A stretch of DNA of 64,000 nt from Blastocatellia bacterium (GTDB taxonomy: Bacteria; Acidobacteriota; Blastocatellia; UBA7656). The position numbers were made by a program, and so were the translations under genes. This document shows, piece by piece, positions 1 to 7,027 of the stretch. Within the stretch, counting starts at the first letter, position 1. Each line of letters begins with the position of its first letter. The DNA lies in assembly GCA_963765495.1 (NCBI GenBank), contig CAVXWP010000017.1, forward strand, positions 1 through 64,000, given 5' to 3'. Under the pieces are notes generated by a model. That model was not told the DNA's origin, ran no database searches, and saw only the letters and a list, made by a program, of their open reading frames with translations.

Positions 1-75
1 AGATAACCGGCGCGCTGTGGCCTGCAATGCAAGCGAGACATTGGTATGCGCGTCCGGTTGATGGACCAGTTAGGC
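1..75 (-). repeat. attC site (partial)
   Basis: ATAACCGGCGCGC...GCGCG(T)CCGGTT(G)AT...GTTAGGC(69-75). Confidence 0.9.
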
Positions 76-269
76 GCATTCCACCTTGTAGGTTCAATAG
101 AGTTACTCGTTCCCCTCTGCCAAGGCGCGCCCAGTGTTGATTTGCTTTTCAATCAGCAAATATAGGAGGGCGCGGCGGACTGATTGTGTCAGCACTGTTG
201 GCAGGCAATTAGTCTGATTGCTTCATAGACGAGTAGTATGCCTCTTTTTCACGGATGGCTTTCCTGTGC
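76..269 (-). mobile_element. Gene-less cassette body, family A (short type, diverged variant)
   Basis: Lies between attC sites; homologous to 356-548; no ORF of useful length confined to the cassette. Confidence 0.8.
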
Positions 270-355
270 GCTTAACGCCGGAGATAACCGGCCCGCTGTG
301 GGCTCAGGGATAATGAAGGGTTGGAATGCGGGTCCGGTTGATGGACCAGTTAGGC
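270..355 (-). repeat. attC site
   Basis: GCTTAAC(270-276)...GTTAGGC(349-355); AT-AACCGG-CCCGC pairs with GCGGG-T-CCGGTT-G-AT (two extrahelical bases). Confidence 0.95.
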
Positions 356-548
356 GCATTCCACCTTGAAGGTTCGGTAAAGATACCACTGTCGAAATGC
401 CAAGCCGCGCCAACAGATAGCTTCGACTCAACCGGAATTTATCGGGTAGCGCGGCGCAGTGATTGTGTCAGTACACTTTGTAGACATGTAGTCTGATTGC
501 TTGGTTGACGATCAGTGTGGCTCATTATCACGTATGGCTTCCCTGTGC
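356..548 (-). mobile_element. Gene-less cassette body, family A (short type, copy 1 of 3)
   Basis: Near-identical to 2804-2997 and 3421-3613. Confidence 0.85.
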
Positions 549-633
549 GCTTAACGACGAGTTCAGCGGCGCGCTGTGGGTGGAGGGATAATGAATCGGT
601 GGCATGCGCGTCCGCTGGAATGAGCAGTTAGGC
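549..633 (-). repeat. attC site
   Basis: GCTTAAC...TTCAGCGGCGCGC...GCGCG(T)CCGCTG(G)AA...GTTAGGC. Confidence 0.95.
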
Positions 634-1069
634 GGCTTCCTTCGCCGATTCATCCTTCTTGAGCTTTCCTGATCATAACCCTCCTATTCTTATCTCTCGT
701 TTCTGCACAGTTTCTCTTCTTCCTCACAGGTCATTTCCTCTCTCGTGCGACAGGTGTTGCTCTCTTTCGTCGGGGAAGCTTTTTGATCTGCCTACTTCCT
801 CTTTTCCAAACTCGCCTCTCTGATGCTTGTCTCAACAGGCAATCGGCTGAACAGGCTTCTTCGCCAGACAGGTTTATATGAGCAATGCTGAAAGACTGCT
901 TTGGGAGAAAGAAGTGTCAGATGAAGGAGCAGGGATGAGAGACACAGCAGAGTAGTAGGGGATAAAGAGGCAAGAGAATCGAGCAAGTAGGGGTCCTGGC
1001 GATGACTTGCCTGGACAGGTTTCAACAGCAAGGCAAACTGAGTCGTCTCCCTTTCGTCGGTGATCTGAC
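634..1069 (-). mobile_element. Gene-less cassette body, family B
   Basis: Shares sequence blocks with 1155-1507; pyrimidine-rich then purine-rich on the + strand. Confidence 0.75.
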
Positions 1070-1154
1070 GCCTAACACCGAGATAACCGGCCCGCAGTGG
1101 CCACAGGGATAATGAAACGGTGGTATGCGGGTCCGGTTGATTGAGCGGTTAGGC
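1070..1154 (-). repeat. attC site
   Basis: GCCTAAC...AACCGGCCCGC...GCGGG(T)CCGGTT...GTTAGGC. Confidence 0.95.
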
Positions 1155-1507
1155 GGCCCCTTGAGTGCTTCATTTTCTTGAGCCTTGCTCAATACATTCC
1201 TCCATTTCTCAGGTTCTCTGTTGGATACAGGTTTTCCTGCTATGGTCAGGGAAGCTGCTTGATGCGTGAAGTTCATTCATACCTGGCAGGTCTTCTCTGG
1301 CGCTTGGCTCAAATGGTGATTGCACTGCGAAAGTATCCTTGAGAGGCAGCATTATCATTGAGCCATGCTGAAAGATAGTTTCGGGAGGAACGAGTATGAG
1401 GTAAAGAGGAAAGAGAAGCGAGCAAGTAGCTGTCCTTATGATGACTTACCTGAACATGTTTTCGCATCATCGCTTGAAGAGTCGTATCGTTCCAGCGATG
1501 ATCTGAC
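1155..1507 (-). mobile_element. Gene-less cassette body, family B
   Basis: Homologous to 634-1069; no shared reading frame. Confidence 0.75.
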
Positions 1508-1593
1508 GCCTAACGCCGAGTTCAGCGGCGCGCTGTGGCCTCCGATGCAAGTAAACTGTTGGCATGCGCGTCCGCTGGAATGAGCGGTTAGGC
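1508..1593 (-). repeat. attC site
   Basis: GCCTAAC...GTTAGGC with internal palindrome. Confidence 0.95.
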
Positions 1594-2059
1594 CCGACCC
1601 CCAGTCAAGCCGCTACACATCCTCGCAGTCACTTCCATCGCGGATCACTGCTTCAAATTATCTGTCGAGACAACACCGTCATCTCCGCAGCCGCTCGCTT
1701 CCTTGTATGAATTGGTTTTCTCTCAGAGCCGAGTCGAAATAAGAGCAGGAAGGAGTAATGCATTGGAGTGAAGAGAATAAGGGAAAAGCAAGAATGAGAC
1801 GATCAATGTCAAAGCAGAGAGTCGAAGGAAAGAGACGAGAGGAGAGGAGAAGGATGAGGATCAAGGAGAGGCAATGGAGAGACAGGGCAAGAGAGAAGGA
1901 AGGAAAGCGAAGAAAGAGAGGGCAGGAGATGGAAAGGAACCAAGGCCAGGTCGAAGAGAAGAGAGGGAAGAGCAATGAGGAGATAGAAGAGAAAGGAAGG
2001 AAAAAAGAGAAGAGGAAAGAAAGAAAGACCAATCGAGGAATTGGAAAGCAACAAGGAGG
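1594..2059 (-). mobile_element. Cassette body with a polypurine(+)/polypyrimidine(-) tract; no credible gene
   Basis: About 1740-2059 is mostly A/G on +; the overlapping ORFs are low-complexity and cross attC sites. Confidence 0.7.
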
Positions 2060-2145
2060 GCCTAACGACGAGTTCAGCGGCGCGCTGTGGGTTGAGAGGA
2101 TAATAAGGAGGTGGAAAGCGCGTCCGCTGGAATGAGCAGTTAGGC
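2060..2145 (-). repeat. attC site
   Basis: GCCTAAC...GTTAGGC with internal palindrome. Confidence 0.95.
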
Positions 2146-2717
2146 TGGTTACCAATGCTAATTTTCCTTTCAGGTTTACTCTGTGCTTTCTGATAGTTGC
2201 TTCCCTTTTGCATACCTTTCTTCTTAACTCGGTTCCTATTCTGTTTCCTGATTAGTTTGAATCCTGCCACGAATACCAGAACTATTAATGGTGTCAGACG
2301 AAGACTTCATACGATGGCAACTGGCCTGTTTCAATGCCAGGACCATAATGATTACAGTCATTAGCCCAGCTTGCAATCAGCAGATACCATATTTATTTGG
2401 TCGAGGCCCGGAGATCAGAGGATGTATATTTCCACCAGATAAAATATCGCGGGATCATAGCGATCCTCCTGCCACTCATAAAGGCGTTCAATCGGATTGT
2501 CATTGATGGATCGGTTCTTATTCCATGTGTCGAAATCTCTTTCTCTTTCGCATGGCACAACTCACGAAATATCGAATATCAGTTCAAATACGAAGTGAGT
2601 GTATCAGTACTGTCGGAGGTGAGATAGTCTGAATAGTGATATTTGTATTTGGCGAATTGCTTCGGGAAGGGGTTCCTGAGGCTTTAACTAAATCAGGAAT
2701 TGCGATGAGACTGCGAG
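2146..2717 (-). mobile_element. Unique AT-rich cassette body; no long ORF in cassette orientation
   Basis: Lies between attC sites; only short antisense ORFs or attC-crossing ORFs. Confidence 0.7.
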
Positions 2718-2803
2718 GCCTAACGCCGGAGATAACCGGCCCGCTGTGGGCTCAGGGATAATGAAGGGTTGGAATGCGGGTCCGGTTGATGGACCAGTTA
2801 GGC
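2718..2803 (-). repeat. attC site
   Basis: Identical to 270-355 except in the box contributed by the neighbouring cassette. Confidence 0.95.
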
Positions 2804-2997
2804 GCATTCCACCTTGAAGGTTCGGTAAAGATACCACTGTCGAAATGCCAAGCCGCGCCAACAGATAGCTTCGACTCAACCGGAATTTATCGGGTAGCGC
2901 GGCGCAGTGATTGTGTCAGTACACTTTGTAGACATGTAGTCTGATTGCTTGGTTGACGATCAGTGTAGCCTCATTATCACGGATCGCTTCCCTGTGC
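2804..2997 (-). mobile_element. Gene-less cassette body, family A (short type, copy 2 of 3)
   Basis: Near-identical to 3421-3613, with one extra C. Confidence 0.85.
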
Positions 2998-3085
2998 GCT
3001 TAACGCCGGGGATCAGCGGCCCGCTGTGGGCAGAGGGATAATGAGGCGGTGGCATGCGGGTCCGGCTGAATGCCACCGGTTAGGC
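2998..3085 (-). repeat. attC site
   Basis: GCTTAAC...CAGCGGCCCGC...GCGGGTCCGGCTG...GTTAGGC. Confidence 0.9.
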
Positions 3086-3334
3086 GCGTTCTGATCTTGT
3101 AAGTTCGTTACAGATGAATATTCCTGTCGTTCAAGCCGCGCAAGCTTACTTTACCTAGCGGACTTTGACTCTGCCTTTTCAGACTAGCGCAGCAGTGTGA
3201 GCTATCGCGACGTAGCGTTCTACGCTGCAATCTGAGCCAGTGTAGTCTAACAGCACTGCTTGTAGACAGGTAATATTGTCTGCTGCATCTTGGCGATCAG
3301 TGTGGTTGATTTTCATCGGACCACTTTCCTGCGC
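3086..3334 (-). mobile_element. Gene-less cassette body, family A (long type)
   Basis: Homologous to 3700-3961; shares blocks with the short type. Confidence 0.8.
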
Positions 3335-3420
3335 GCTTAACGCCGGAGATAACCGGCCCGCTGTGGGCTCAGGGATAATGAAGGGTTGGAATGCGGGTCC
3401 GGTTGATGGACCAGTTAGGC
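3335..3420 (-). repeat. attC site
   Basis: Identical to 270-355. Confidence 0.95.
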
Positions 3421-3613
3421 GCATTCCACCTTGAAGGTTCGGTAAAGATACCACTGTCGAAATGCCAAGCCGCGCCAACAGATAGCTTCGACTCAACCGG
3501 AATTTATCGGGTAGCGCGGCGCAGTGATTGTGTCAGTACACTTTGTAGACATGTAGTCTGATTGCTTGGTTGACGATCAGTGTAGCTCATTATCACGGAT
3601 CGCTTCCCTGTGC
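3421..3613 (-). mobile_element. Gene-less cassette body, family A (short type, copy 3 of 3)
   Basis: Near-identical to 356-548 and 2804-2997. Confidence 0.85.
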
Positions 3614-3699
3614 GCTTAACGCCGGAGATAACCGGCGCGCTGTGGCCCCGATGCCATCGAGAAGGTGGTATGCGCGTCCGGTTGATCGACCAGTTAGGC
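3614..3699 (-). repeat. attC site
   Basis: GCTTAAC...AACCGGCGCGC...GCGCG(T)CCGGTT(G)AT...GTTAGGC. Confidence 0.95.
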
Positions 3700-3961
3700 G
3701 CGTTCTGATTTGCAAGTATGTCACAGATAATTGCCTTCGTAATAGCCGCGCTGGCCCACTTTGCCTTTTAGCGAGGCTTTGACCTATCCTATTAAAGAAG
3801 CGCGGCGGAGTGTGAGGCTAACTCGACAGACGAAGAGAGGTCATCGCTGGTTGCAATCTGAGGGCCAGTGTGAGTCAAACAGCACAGCTTGTAGGCAGGT
3901 ATTCTTCGGCTGCGATCTTGACGATCAGTGTGATTCATTCTCATCGACCAACTTCCTGCGC
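3700..3961 (-). mobile_element. First (attI-proximal) cassette body, gene-less family A (long type)
   Basis: Lies between attI and attC 3614-3699; homologous to 3086-3334. Confidence 0.8.
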
Positions 3962-3990
3962 GCTTAACTTTGAAGTAGACTGCCTAATGG
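3962..3990 (-). other. attI recombination site (approximate extent)
   Basis: Minus strand reads CATTAGGCAGTCTACTTCAAA-GTTAAGC: a GTTRRRY core preceded by an A-run, not part of an attC hairpin, lying between the array and intI. Confidence 0.75.
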
Positions 3991-4076
3991 CCGCCACCTT
4001 TTGCGCCTGTTTGGCTGTGTAAGCCAGCCATCGCTTCTTTACCTTCTTTTACTTCAACATTTCCCTACATACTCAC

Positions 4077-4113
4077 TTGCTTACACGCATTCTCTCCCTT
4101 TATATTACACGCA
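4077..4113 (+). promoter_or_regulatory. Putative intI promoter
   Basis: TTGCTT-N18-TATATT upstream of intI, overlapped by direct repeats TTACACGCA at 4081 and 4105. Confidence 0.4.
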
Positions 4114-4152
4114 CCCGGGTTATTCCTTTTCTCTCTTCTGAGGTCCCCTTAC

Positions 4153-5106
4153 ATGTCTAAGCTCCTCGATCAGGTTCGCTCCATTTTACGCACTCGTAAC
4201 TACTCCATCCGTACCGAGCAAGCCTACCTCCATTGGATCAAACAATTCATCCTCTTCCACAATAAATCCCATCCCGCCTCTCTCGGCTCGGCTGAGGTTA
4301 GCTCCTTTTTATCTCATCTGGCCGTTGCGCGCAATGTCGCCCCTGCCACTCAGCAACAAGCCACTTCCGCCTTGCTTTTCCTCTACTACGATGTTCTCGA
4401 CATCCAACTTGGCTGGATCGCCAATATTGAAAGGGCCAAAAAGCCTGCTCGTCTGCCTGTGGTTTTCACGAGAGTTGAGGCACGGAATATCCTCCTTCAT
4501 ATCACAGGGGGGAAATTCTTGATGGCCAGCTTGCTCTACGGGGCGGGACTCCGATTGATGGAATGCCTTCGCCTTCGCGTCAAAGATATTGACTTTGGCT
4601 ACAATCAGATCGTTGTACGTGATGGCAAAGGCAAGAAAGATAGAGTCACTGTACTGCCTGCCCCTCTTATCGAACCACTGCGACATCATCTGGCACACGT
4701 TAAGGCAATCCACGAGAAGGATCTGCGTGAGGGATACGGGCAAGTCTATCTGCCCTATGCTCTTTCGAGGAAGTATCCAAGCGCCGAGCGGGAATGGAGT
4801 TGGCAGTATGTCTTTCCCGCAAACAAGCGAAGCCTCGATCCCCGGACAGGGAAGATACAGCGACATCATTTTGCTGAGACTGCCTTACAAAGGGCTGTGA
4901 AATCGGCGATTCGAGCAGCGGGAGTTCACAAGCAGGCGAGTTGTCACACATTTCGGCACAGCTTTGCAACGCACTTGTTGGAAGCGGGCTATGACATACG
5001 GACAGTGCAGGAGTTACTTGGGCATAAGGAAGTAAGCACGACAATGATCTACACGCATGTACTAAACAAGGGAGGTAAAGGTGTTCGCTCTCCGCTTGAG
5101 CTATAG
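4153..5106 (+). CDS. intI: Integron integrase (tyrosine recombinase)
   Basis: [26 protein letters not shown] and TMIYTHV catalytic motifs plus the integron-specific insert [23 protein letters not shown]; adjacent attC array. Confidence 0.97.
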
Positions 5107-5445: not shown

Positions 5446-6443
5446 TAGCGGTTTTCATTTGAGTGAGAAGACATAGCCACAATGCTTGAACCAGCCAATG
5501 ATGTCATTCTCCGTAACCAGGGCAATGGCTTTCGCCAGCGCGTTGTACAATTTCCTTGGCGTCCCCGCTTTGAAACGCCGCAACGCCGCTTTGATCTTTG
5601 AAATGCATTCCTCAAGCGGATTGAAGTCGGGTCAGTAAGCTGGCAGATATAATACTTTGACGCCCGCTGCTTCAATCCTTGCGATAGCTCTTGGCGAAGA
5701 ATGAAACTTGATCTTGTCGAGGATGAGGATCGTCCCTGCTCGCAAGCTGGGCAGCAGCATCTGCTCGACGTATAAATCAAAGATTTCCGAGTTGAAGGCG
5801 CCCTCAATCATCAGCGGCGCTTCGACACCACTCAGGCTCAAGGCGCTTATGACAGAGAGCTTGGTGCCGGGATCAAACGGCTCACTGACCACCGCACGCT
5901 GGCCAATTGGAGCGCGGGCGTGAATGCGGGTCATTGCTAAATTGATGCCGAATTCGTCAAGAAATATCAAATCTTCGACCTTCAACTGTTCTTGTTGTTG
6001 GCGGAACGTCGCACGTGCTTGGGAGTTAGCTTCGGCAGCGAGTTTCGACTTTTTTTTCGCGAAAGGCCACGCGCTTGCAGGGCGCGACAAATGGTGCTAG
6101 TACTGACTTCAAGACGAGATTTCTTTTTCAATTGCTGACGCAGTTCATCAAGTGTGGCGTCAGGAGAAAGGGCAACCAATACAGATAACTTGAGACAGTG
6201 GTCTTGAGTGAGCTTTGCAGATGGGCCGCCGTGAGGCAAGGGGGCAATATGATTGAGTTGGCGCTTTTGGCGCAAGTGTTTGTAAATGAAGGATTCGTGG
6301 ATGCCGAAGAGTTTAGCAATCTCTCGCTTGCTGTTGTCCTTACGCTCAACAGCATCAAGGATTCGTTGTCGAAGGTGTAAAGAATAGGCAGCCATAATTT
6401 TAGTAAAGCGCATTCAATCTATTCGTTCAAGTGCAAACCACTG
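5446..6443 (-). mobile_element. IS630-family insertion sequence (inactive)
   Basis: Imperfect terminal inverted repeats TAGCGGTTTTCATTTGA / TCAAGTGCAAACCACTG with a TA duplication (5444-45, 6444-45); HTH and DDE ORFs. Confidence 0.85.
5455..6395 (-). pseudogene. IS630 transposase: two ORFs joined by an A8G -1 frameshift site, with a premature TGA
   Basis: N-terminal HTH (MAAYSLHLRQRI); FLDEFG, ILDK; YLPAY*PDFNPLEE where the usual motif is YSPDxNPIE. Confidence 0.85.
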
Positions 6444-6445
6444 TA

Positions 6446-7027
6446 GTAAGCGGAACAGTAGCCATTCCAGTAGAATTATCTTTGTAGTACACAAAACCGC
6501 TACTGGTTTCTTTATACAGTATTGATTCTCCTTCACTTTTATCGAAGTGTGGGCGCTTCAATTCAGGCGTGGCGTATTGGAGAAGCTCCTGCACAAGTGC
6601 CTCACTAAGGCTACTCTTGCTTGGCCCTACATTTTTTTGATGCGCTCGGCAAAAAAGTCGTCGAGGCCAACCTTATTGCCACCTGCTGAAGGTGGGAGAT
6701 AGATAAAGAGGACTTCAGCACCTCTGCTGCGTAGAAATTCAGAAATGCGCACGAGAGCTTTGTGGACCTGAGATTTTCCATTACATCTGAGTCGAAAACG
6801 ATGTACACCTTGCGATCATTAAGCGCGATATACTCCCAATCAGGCAGAATAGTTTTCCCGCCATATTGATTTGAGCCGCGAAAGTTCCACACGCCAAGCA
6901 GGGCAATGCAGTACAATTCTTGAGAGATTGCGCTATCAGCCTTACGAATCCCTTCCGTATTGAACAGTGGGACTCGTGGAGCACCGAGCGATTTACGAAT
7001 GCGAGGATGCACATCTACGCACATCAC
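6446..7027 (-). pseudogene. DUF3854/TOPRIM primase-like remnant of a phage or plasmid element, frameshifted and truncated
   Basis: TEGIRKAD...LGVWN...PDWEYIAL.DRKVYIVFDSD motif, continuing in another frame as GNKVGLDDFF; interrupted by IS630; 5' end cut at the tRNA fragment. Confidence 0.7.

Follow-up and report, generated by a model that had tools for sequence, protein, structure and literature searches.

What do integron cassettes carry when they carry no gene? The question is raised by the first 64 kb of contig C17 (CAVXWP010000017.1, positions 1 to 64,000; referred to here as the window) of a Blastocatellia bacterium genome (assembly GCA_963765495.1) of 7.30 Mb in 17 contigs. At the left end of the window lie an integron integrase gene, intI, and ten cassettes that a preliminary description, made from the sequence, had read as an entirely non-coding array. 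We conclude with high confidence that the locus forms the intI end of a large, sedentary integron system on the chromosome and that its ten visible cassettes are truly gene-less; they are one gene-less part of arrays that are mixed, and the integron is not non-coding throughout. The GC content is 52–55% across the contigs of the genome and 54% overall, and the sole sequencing run (DNA) that contains the stretch, with 0.49 of the words present, is labelled soil metagenome.

The intI gene (4153-5106, + strand) is intact and encodes a protein of 317 amino acids (aa) that scores 478.2 bits against the profile TIGR02249 (cut-off 265) over 313 of the 315 profile positions, which places it among the integron-type tyrosine recombinases; Pfam recognizes the domains Phage_integrase (PF00589) and Phage_int_SAM_4 (PF13495). 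Its closest relatives are no more than 68% identical and are spread over many phyla. Cassette 1 is separated from intI by the attI region and platform (3962-4152, - strand), where the heptamer GCTTAAC at 3962-3968 (GTTAAGC, of the crossover type, on the minus strand) stands about 185 bp before the start of intI with no partner hairpin after it and is, to judge from these sequence features, the attI junction. The array is on the strand opposite to intI, so that the two are divergent.

Ten attC sites were first read in the sequence and then recovered with a hidden Markov model (HMM) built from nine of them. They are 85–88 nt long, and their form, GC(C/T)TAAC ... GTTAGGC, is that of the imperfect palindrome RYYYAAC ... 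GTTRRRY. The site at 1508-1593 folds into a hairpin in which the outer boxes pair and one bulge is left (DNA z-score -2.6); the fold of the site at 3335-3420 is less clear (z-score -0.28). The nine bodies between attC sites measure 194, 193, 436, 353, 466, 572, 194, 249 and 193 bp from left to right, and the tenth, next to attI, about 262 bp. The leftmost attC (1-75) is incomplete at the contig end, and since the window starts at base 1 of C17 this truncation of the array comes from the assembly and not from biology. The anatomy given in the preliminary description—an intact intI, an attI-like site and ten cassettes with bodies of 193–572 bp—is therefore correct.

The sense strand of the cassettes is the minus strand of the window, because intI is divergent, open reading frames (ORFs) are biased to that strand genome-wide, and the attC bulge is placed accordingly. 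Median ORF cover of bodies of 450–1500 bp, taken over the genome, is 0.71–0.79 on the sense strand versus 0.25–0.30 on the other. In the folded attC the single bulge is in the 3' arm of the + strand, which, on the attC model, we take to mark the + strand as the recombined bottom strand.

Three intI genes above the family cut-off are present in the genome, on contigs C6, C17 and C3, together with 247 attC matches (at least 247 sites), of which 223 are in arrays with at least five sites that together cover about 178 kb. Fragments of arrays are found on contigs C2, C3, C6, C9, C12 and C17, and most of them stop at contig ends, so the arrays appear to have been fragmented by their own repeats. Cassette bodies were defined as the intervals between neighbouring same-strand attC matches, and the resulting 222 bodies were clustered. 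Five short paralogous families account for 102 of these (46%): F0, with 34 copies and bodies of 188–194 bp; F1, with 30 copies (353–437 bp); F2, with 14 copies (249–264 bp); F3, with 14 copies (176–179 bp); and F4, with 10 copies (338–363 bp). In the window, four cassettes belong to F0, two to F1 and two to F2, and two are singletons, so that eight of the ten are in families. The other 120 or so of the 222 cassettes are outside the five families, and the longer ones bear ORFs; every array mixes gene-less cassettes with ORF-bearing ones, and F0 copies come in runs of up to five. The view that the entire array is non-coding holds for the ten visible cassettes and finds no support in the wider, mixed arrays.

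The platform of C17 can be aligned along its whole length with that of the second integron, on C6, as far as an identical ...CTTCAAAG|TTAAGCGCG junction. The two paralogous platforms occupy 3690-4170 of the window and C6:264495-264975, with attI regions that align, and a near-identical F2 gene-less cassette is in first position in both integrons; the arrangement looks like a segmental duplication. The platform of the third integron, on C3, is unrelated to these two in the attI region.

Cassettes need not contain an ORF (Cury et al. 2016, PMC4889954), and none of the ten cassettes of the window has an ORF spanning it from its start to attC. The longest sense ORFs in the scored bodies are 25–79 aa, the exception being a frame of 117 codons in the low-complexity body 1594-2059. 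Blanco et al. (2024, PMC11014356) call cassettes gene-less when they have no ORF of 70 aa or more. With ATG, GTG or TTG as start, seven of the nine scored bodies are below that length (25–55 aa), leaving 634-1069 (79 aa) and 1594-2059 (117 aa); the attI-proximal body, which is outside this nine-body scoring, has listed ORFs of 50–68 aa. Longer listed ORFs of the window, of 60–158 aa, cross attC sites. Across the genome, sense ORFs stay under 70 aa in 82 of the 102 family cassettes.

The pattern of substitution agrees with the ORF content. Among codons with a single difference between family members, the synonymous share is 0.16–0.36 in all six frames of F0–F4; in a control made with the three intI paralogs it is 0.78 in the true frame and 0.07–0.12 in the other sense frames. 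Open frames shift in frame and position between family members, and indels between paralogs are often of 1, 2 or 5 nt, not multiples of three. No Pfam match was obtained for any of ten window ORFs at E-values up to 1, and a 60-aa ORF over the 3' end of F0 and its attC has no homologue among the proteins of 33–105 aa of a large protein collection. By ORF content, substitution pattern, Pfam searches and unkept frames, the ten window cassettes are non-coding; the preliminary statement that no ORF spans a cassette, and that the predicted ones cross attC sites, are of low complexity or are unconserved, is borne out by the ORF list and by the frames of the paralogs. Boucher et al. (2006, PMC1382264) counted as non-coding those cassettes with no ORF longer than 150 bp, no protein match and no codon-like substitution pattern, and the last two of these describe the gene-less cassettes here.

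The cassettes are described from attI outward, all on the minus strand, with attC sites placed by the HMM and family bodies assigned by clustering. Cassette 1 (body 3700-3961, attC 3614-3699) is a gene-less F2 member recognized by alignment: the 3' half of its body aligns with F2 members, and the cassette in first position in the C6 integron aligns with it over its full length. Cassette 2 (body 3421-3613, attC 3335-3420, also folded) is an F0 member, one of eight identical copies genome-wide as seen from the copy contexts; cassette 3 (body 3086-3334, attC 2998-3085) belongs to F2 and cassette 4 (body 2804-2997, attC 2718-2803) to F0. Cassette 5 (body 2146-2717, attC 2060-2145) is by clustering and ORF scoring a singleton whose longest sense ORF is 55 aa. 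Cassette 6 (body 1594-2059, attC 1508-1593, also folded), examined by sequence and ORF list, is a singleton with a pyrimidine-rich sense strand. Cassettes 7 (body 1155-1507, attC 1070-1154) and 8 (body 634-1069, attC 549-633) are, by clustering and alignment, the short form of F1 and a long form with two extra blocks. Cassette 9 (body 356-548, attC 270-355) is an F0 member, and cassette 10 (body 76-269, attC 1-75, cut by the contig end) belongs to a second F0 subtype and is, from its copy contexts, one of six identical copies.

Both singletons have peculiarities. About 330 nt of the cassette 6 body consist nearly throughout of purines on the + strand, and of pyrimidines on the sense strand. 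Both strands consequently have low-complexity frames free of stops, which we take to be an artefact of composition; the body matched no family or function. In cassette 5, a 47-aa ORF (2415-2558, - strand) matches only a motif of 20–36 residues in two repeat proteins, one of 1534 aa with ten repeats of it (HYR_4C, Por_Secre_tail) and one of 282 aa with six. The E-value is inflated because the motif is repeated six to ten times in the matched proteins. The ORF may be what is left of a repeat protein, or may match by chance, and the cassette may be a decayed remnant.

The families differ in their internal architecture. Representatives of F0 subfamilies are 53–65% identical, with the invariant blocks CGCCGCGC, GCGCG.CTTG and GAACC..CAAG set apart by hypervariable segments of about 22, 37 and 25 nt. 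Invariant columns cluster more than in column shuffles: the longest run reaches 8 of them, where shuffling gives 4.0 on average (P = 0.0055), and three invariant runs of five columns or more are present where 0.26 are expected. A GC-rich inverted repeat is common to F0, F2 and F3, with a variable spacer of 37–48 nt in F2 and F3. F0 has a conserved extended -10-like box, TGn(T/C)A(C/G)AAT, 7 nt upstream of the invariant GC clamp (CGCCGCGC ... GCGCGGC), and TAnnnT-like hexamers stand upstream of the clamp by 9 nt in F2 and by 5 nt in F3. F1 and F4 have their ends in common, along with a purine-rich 3' part and, close to the 3' end, a conserved ATGAA. A short leader ORF running from this ATGAA into attC was considered and rejected: the distance to attC is 19, 20 or 23 nt, so the leader frame is not kept.

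Copies of these cassettes have moved. Eight identical F0 copies lie in eight different upstream and downstream contexts, seven identical F3 copies in seven, and the six identical copies of the second F0 subtype in five; such identity in differing contexts points to the recent movement of single cassettes. Their distribution beyond this genome was followed by the search of cassette bodies against relatives that the preliminary description had called for, and F0–F4 were found in none of the genomes or loci searched. Integron integrases above the cut-off are present in 27 of 41 genomes (the source genome and 40 relatives), and a BLAST search with the F0 body gave no match in the 40 relatives. The whole array compared with 400 genomes of the phylum, a weak search in which two candidates were scored per genome, gave no F0–F4; nhmmer found none in 101 intI loci of other genomes (1.16 Mb); a pattern scan of metagenome contigs for F0 gave no matches; and a pattern scan for attC gave five metagenome loci, with F0–F4 in none of them. 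Spacings shorter than 300 bp make up 24 of 159 in the 101 other loci, as counted by a crude hairpin scan, versus 66 of the 222 cassette bodies here. One of these loci, L079:14400-16500, from a metagenome-assembled genome of another phylum, has three consecutive identical 175-bp spacings between attC-like hairpins, with related units of 214 and 454 bp; repeated short cassettes are therefore not unique to the source genome.

What might maintain so many gene-less cassettes? The reading that we put first, tentatively and as something short of probable, is that they are internal sense-strand expression modules amplified by IntI. It is proposed because of precedent, of the interspersion with ORF-bearing cassettes, and of the conserved -10-like box with its clamp. 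As to precedent, most of 29 gene-less Vibrio cassettes had sense-strand promoter activity (Blanco et al. 2024, PMC11014356). As to how the cassettes spread, the copy contexts suggest that the mobile unit is a body with its own attC, which IntI would excise and re-insert singly, giving the identical copies among unrelated neighbours. As to their role, start sites within the cassettes would give rise to sense-strand transcripts that run on across attC into promoterless cassettes downstream, at a distance from Pc. For F0, the extended -10-like box is the candidate start signal, and the GC clamp would form a hairpin at the 5' end of the transcript.

Several observations weigh against these cassettes being expression modules. 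A scan for the sigma-70 consensus found no sites in 1-4200, against 3.3 +/- 1.5 in shuffles, and 18 in a 15-kb array against 13.6 +/- 4.1, which is no enrichment. The F0 hexamer has no matching -35, and one F0 member has TACAAG with the TG absent. F1 shows no block-wise constraint (P = 0.28), and the GC clamp, being invariant, gives no support from covariation. Runs of up to five F0 and of ten gene-less cassettes in a row exceed the needs of a promoter role, and the promoter analogy is itself drawn from AT-rich Vibrio arrays, versus a genome here of 54% GC. According to Blanco et al. (2024, PMC11014356), the promoters of gene-less cassettes are not predictable in silico, and promoter inference here is limited for that reason.

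A close rival, in our estimate possible but less likely than not, is that the cassettes are purely selfish: minimal attC-bearing units, with no host function, that would over-replicate through excision and re-insertion by IntI. Their conserved blocks would then be features favouring their own recombination, or the product of gene conversion between copies. The high copy numbers (34, 30, 14, 14 and 10), the identical sets of 8, 7 and 6 in differing contexts, the tandem runs and the very short units (262–520 bp with attC) are all as expected of such elements; so is the absence of block-wise constraint in F1, and the families appear restricted to the lineage, given no match in the 40 relatives, the 400 phylum genomes, the 101 loci or the metagenome scan. 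The idea has already been raised for Vibrio (Boucher et al. 2006, PMC1382264). Yet F0 subfamilies that are only 53–65% identical keep invariant internal blocks far from attC that turn up again in F2 and F3, a sign that internal sequence is under selection. The sole candidate link between body and attC also fails: a hairpin of the F0 body end with the attC loop, considered as an attenuator of recombination, depends on an 8-bp complement that occurs in 16 of 34 copies and shows no covariation.

It is improbable that the cassettes are genes for trans-acting small RNAs or other structured RNAs, in which an F0 scaffold would carry the hypervariable segments of about 22, 37 and 25 nt as target specifiers. 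The alternation of conserved blocks with hypervariable segments in F0 is what such genes might look like, and cassettes of Xanthomonas that have no ORF but encode regulatory RNAs have been reported (review PMC8876359). However, neither the 64-kb window nor 51 kb of other arrays gave an Rfam match at the gathering score, and matches at E-values up to 10 were at chance level only. Folds of F0 and F1 on both strands have z-scores of -0.81 to +0.80 relative to dinucleotide shuffles, with no excess stability. RNAalifold finds in the 3' halves of F0 and F2 one invariant GC stem of 5 pairs with no compensatory pairs, and in the 5' region of F1 and F4 no consensus fold and one compensatory pair. The bodies are not followed by an intrinsic terminator. 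That the variable segments might find targets in the manner of guides was considered and rejected: matches outside the arrays are of 22 nt or less and all but one have E-values of 0.03 or more, so that complementary targets elsewhere in the genome do not exceed chance, and the strong matches are further family copies at array edges. Neither an Rfam match nor a covarying structure, by which a structured or small RNA would be recognized, was found, and the preliminary suggestion of a library of small RNAs or DNA-structure units is left with no positive evidence.

Two further folds were tried and discarded. A GGTTCG-like box had raised the suspicion of a tRNA-like fold, and ARAGORN predicted no tRNA or tmRNA gene in 1-4200. 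A long hairpin between F1's pyrimidine-rich half and its purine-rich half does not exceed shuffled sequence in stability.

We regard as quite improbable a broader reading, in which the integron of this lineage would be largely a shuffling platform for non-coding modules and F0, F2 and F3 would form one superfamily. Its members would be a diversified set of regulatory RNAs or of decoys that bind proteins, under selection and reshuffling by IntI, built on a scaffold of the invariant 7–8-bp GC clamp and the GAACC..CAAG box, with specificity residing in hypervariable inserts of about 22–48 nt.

That the cassettes are ordinary coding ones broken by assembly indels, or recently decayed pseudogenes, is scarcely tenable: the genome is a metagenome assembly, and body 2146-2717 has overlapping short ORFs in different frames and a 47-aa ORF with two weak matches, but those matches are to the repeated motif alone, no family frame has the synonymous excess seen in the intI control, paralog indels and switching frames are not those of genes, the 60-aa ORF of F0 and attC lacks a homologue among proteins of 33–105 aa, and the intact intI and the normal sense ORFs and strong strand bias of the 450–1500 bp cassettes speak against assembly error as the cause, contrary to the explanation by indel errors that the preliminary description had held open.

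On its other side, intI is adjoined by a transposase of the IS630 family (5632-6413, - strand) split between two frames that overlap. HTH_Tnp_IS630-type domains are present in the N-terminal ORF, and DDE_3, over profile positions 1–115 of 146, in the C-terminal one; the gene is either frameshifted or truncated, as read from the frames. Just past this insertion sequence, an ORF at 6611-7027 (- strand) has a DUF3854 domain (E = 1.3e-12).

How do these arrays compare with known ones? The preliminary description took gene-less cassettes to be normally a minority, which is not always so: in Vibrio arrays, as reported by Boucher et al. (2006, PMC1382264), 6–49% of the cassettes are non-coding, with the highest share in V. 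vulnificus CMCP6 (107 of 219, or 49%). Large arrays that are up to half non-coding are therefore common to both, with 107 of 219 there and 102 of 222, in five families, here. Highly paralogous families are common to both as well, with 45 and 34 copies in Vibrio and 34 and 30 here, and in neither were homologues found outside the lineage or a codon-like substitution pattern seen; for the Vibrio cassettes, which have none outside vibrios, selfish and promoter-type functions were both weighed in that account. The differences are that the host here is a soil-metagenome genome of 54% GC with three intI genes, that the attC sites of 85–88 nt are of another sequence type, and that the families are unrelated in sequence. 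No counterpart of the invariant GC-rich inverted repeat of F0, F2 and F3 was noticed in the available part of Boucher et al. (2006, PMC1382264).

The superintegrons of Vibrionaceae, as presented by Blanco et al. (2024), resemble the arrays here in that gene-less cassettes are interspersed in long arrays, and the role proposed here is the one shown there. [quoted passage not shown] The ORF-less cassettes with promoter activity from Treponema and the oral metagenome, and those of Xanthomonas, as a review (PMC8876359, section 2.4.3) describes them, likewise combine a normal attC, no ORF and a proposed regulatory role. They are single cassettes, whereas here there are multi-copy families. The Treponema promoters are antisense and sigma-70-like, in contrast to the lack of a sigma-70 consensus site in 1-4200, and no RNA-structure evidence was found here to match the regulatory RNAs encoded by Xanthomonas cassettes.

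The preliminary description had also proposed an undescribed system. In view of the Vibrio arrays with non-coding families of 45 and 34 copies already reported (Boucher et al. 2006, PMC1382264), we regard the locus as a new example and not as a new kind of system. Its cassette complement, with at least 247 attC sites and three intI genes, is one of the larger ones that we know of, and its repeats fragment the assembly. Arrays with many paralogous gene-less cassettes, which had until now been documented in Vibrio, occur also in an unrelated soil bacterium. The short multi-copy families, in their differing contexts, are convenient substrates for asking whether such cassettes act as promoters, as RNAs or as integron parasites, and for measurements of cassette turnover.

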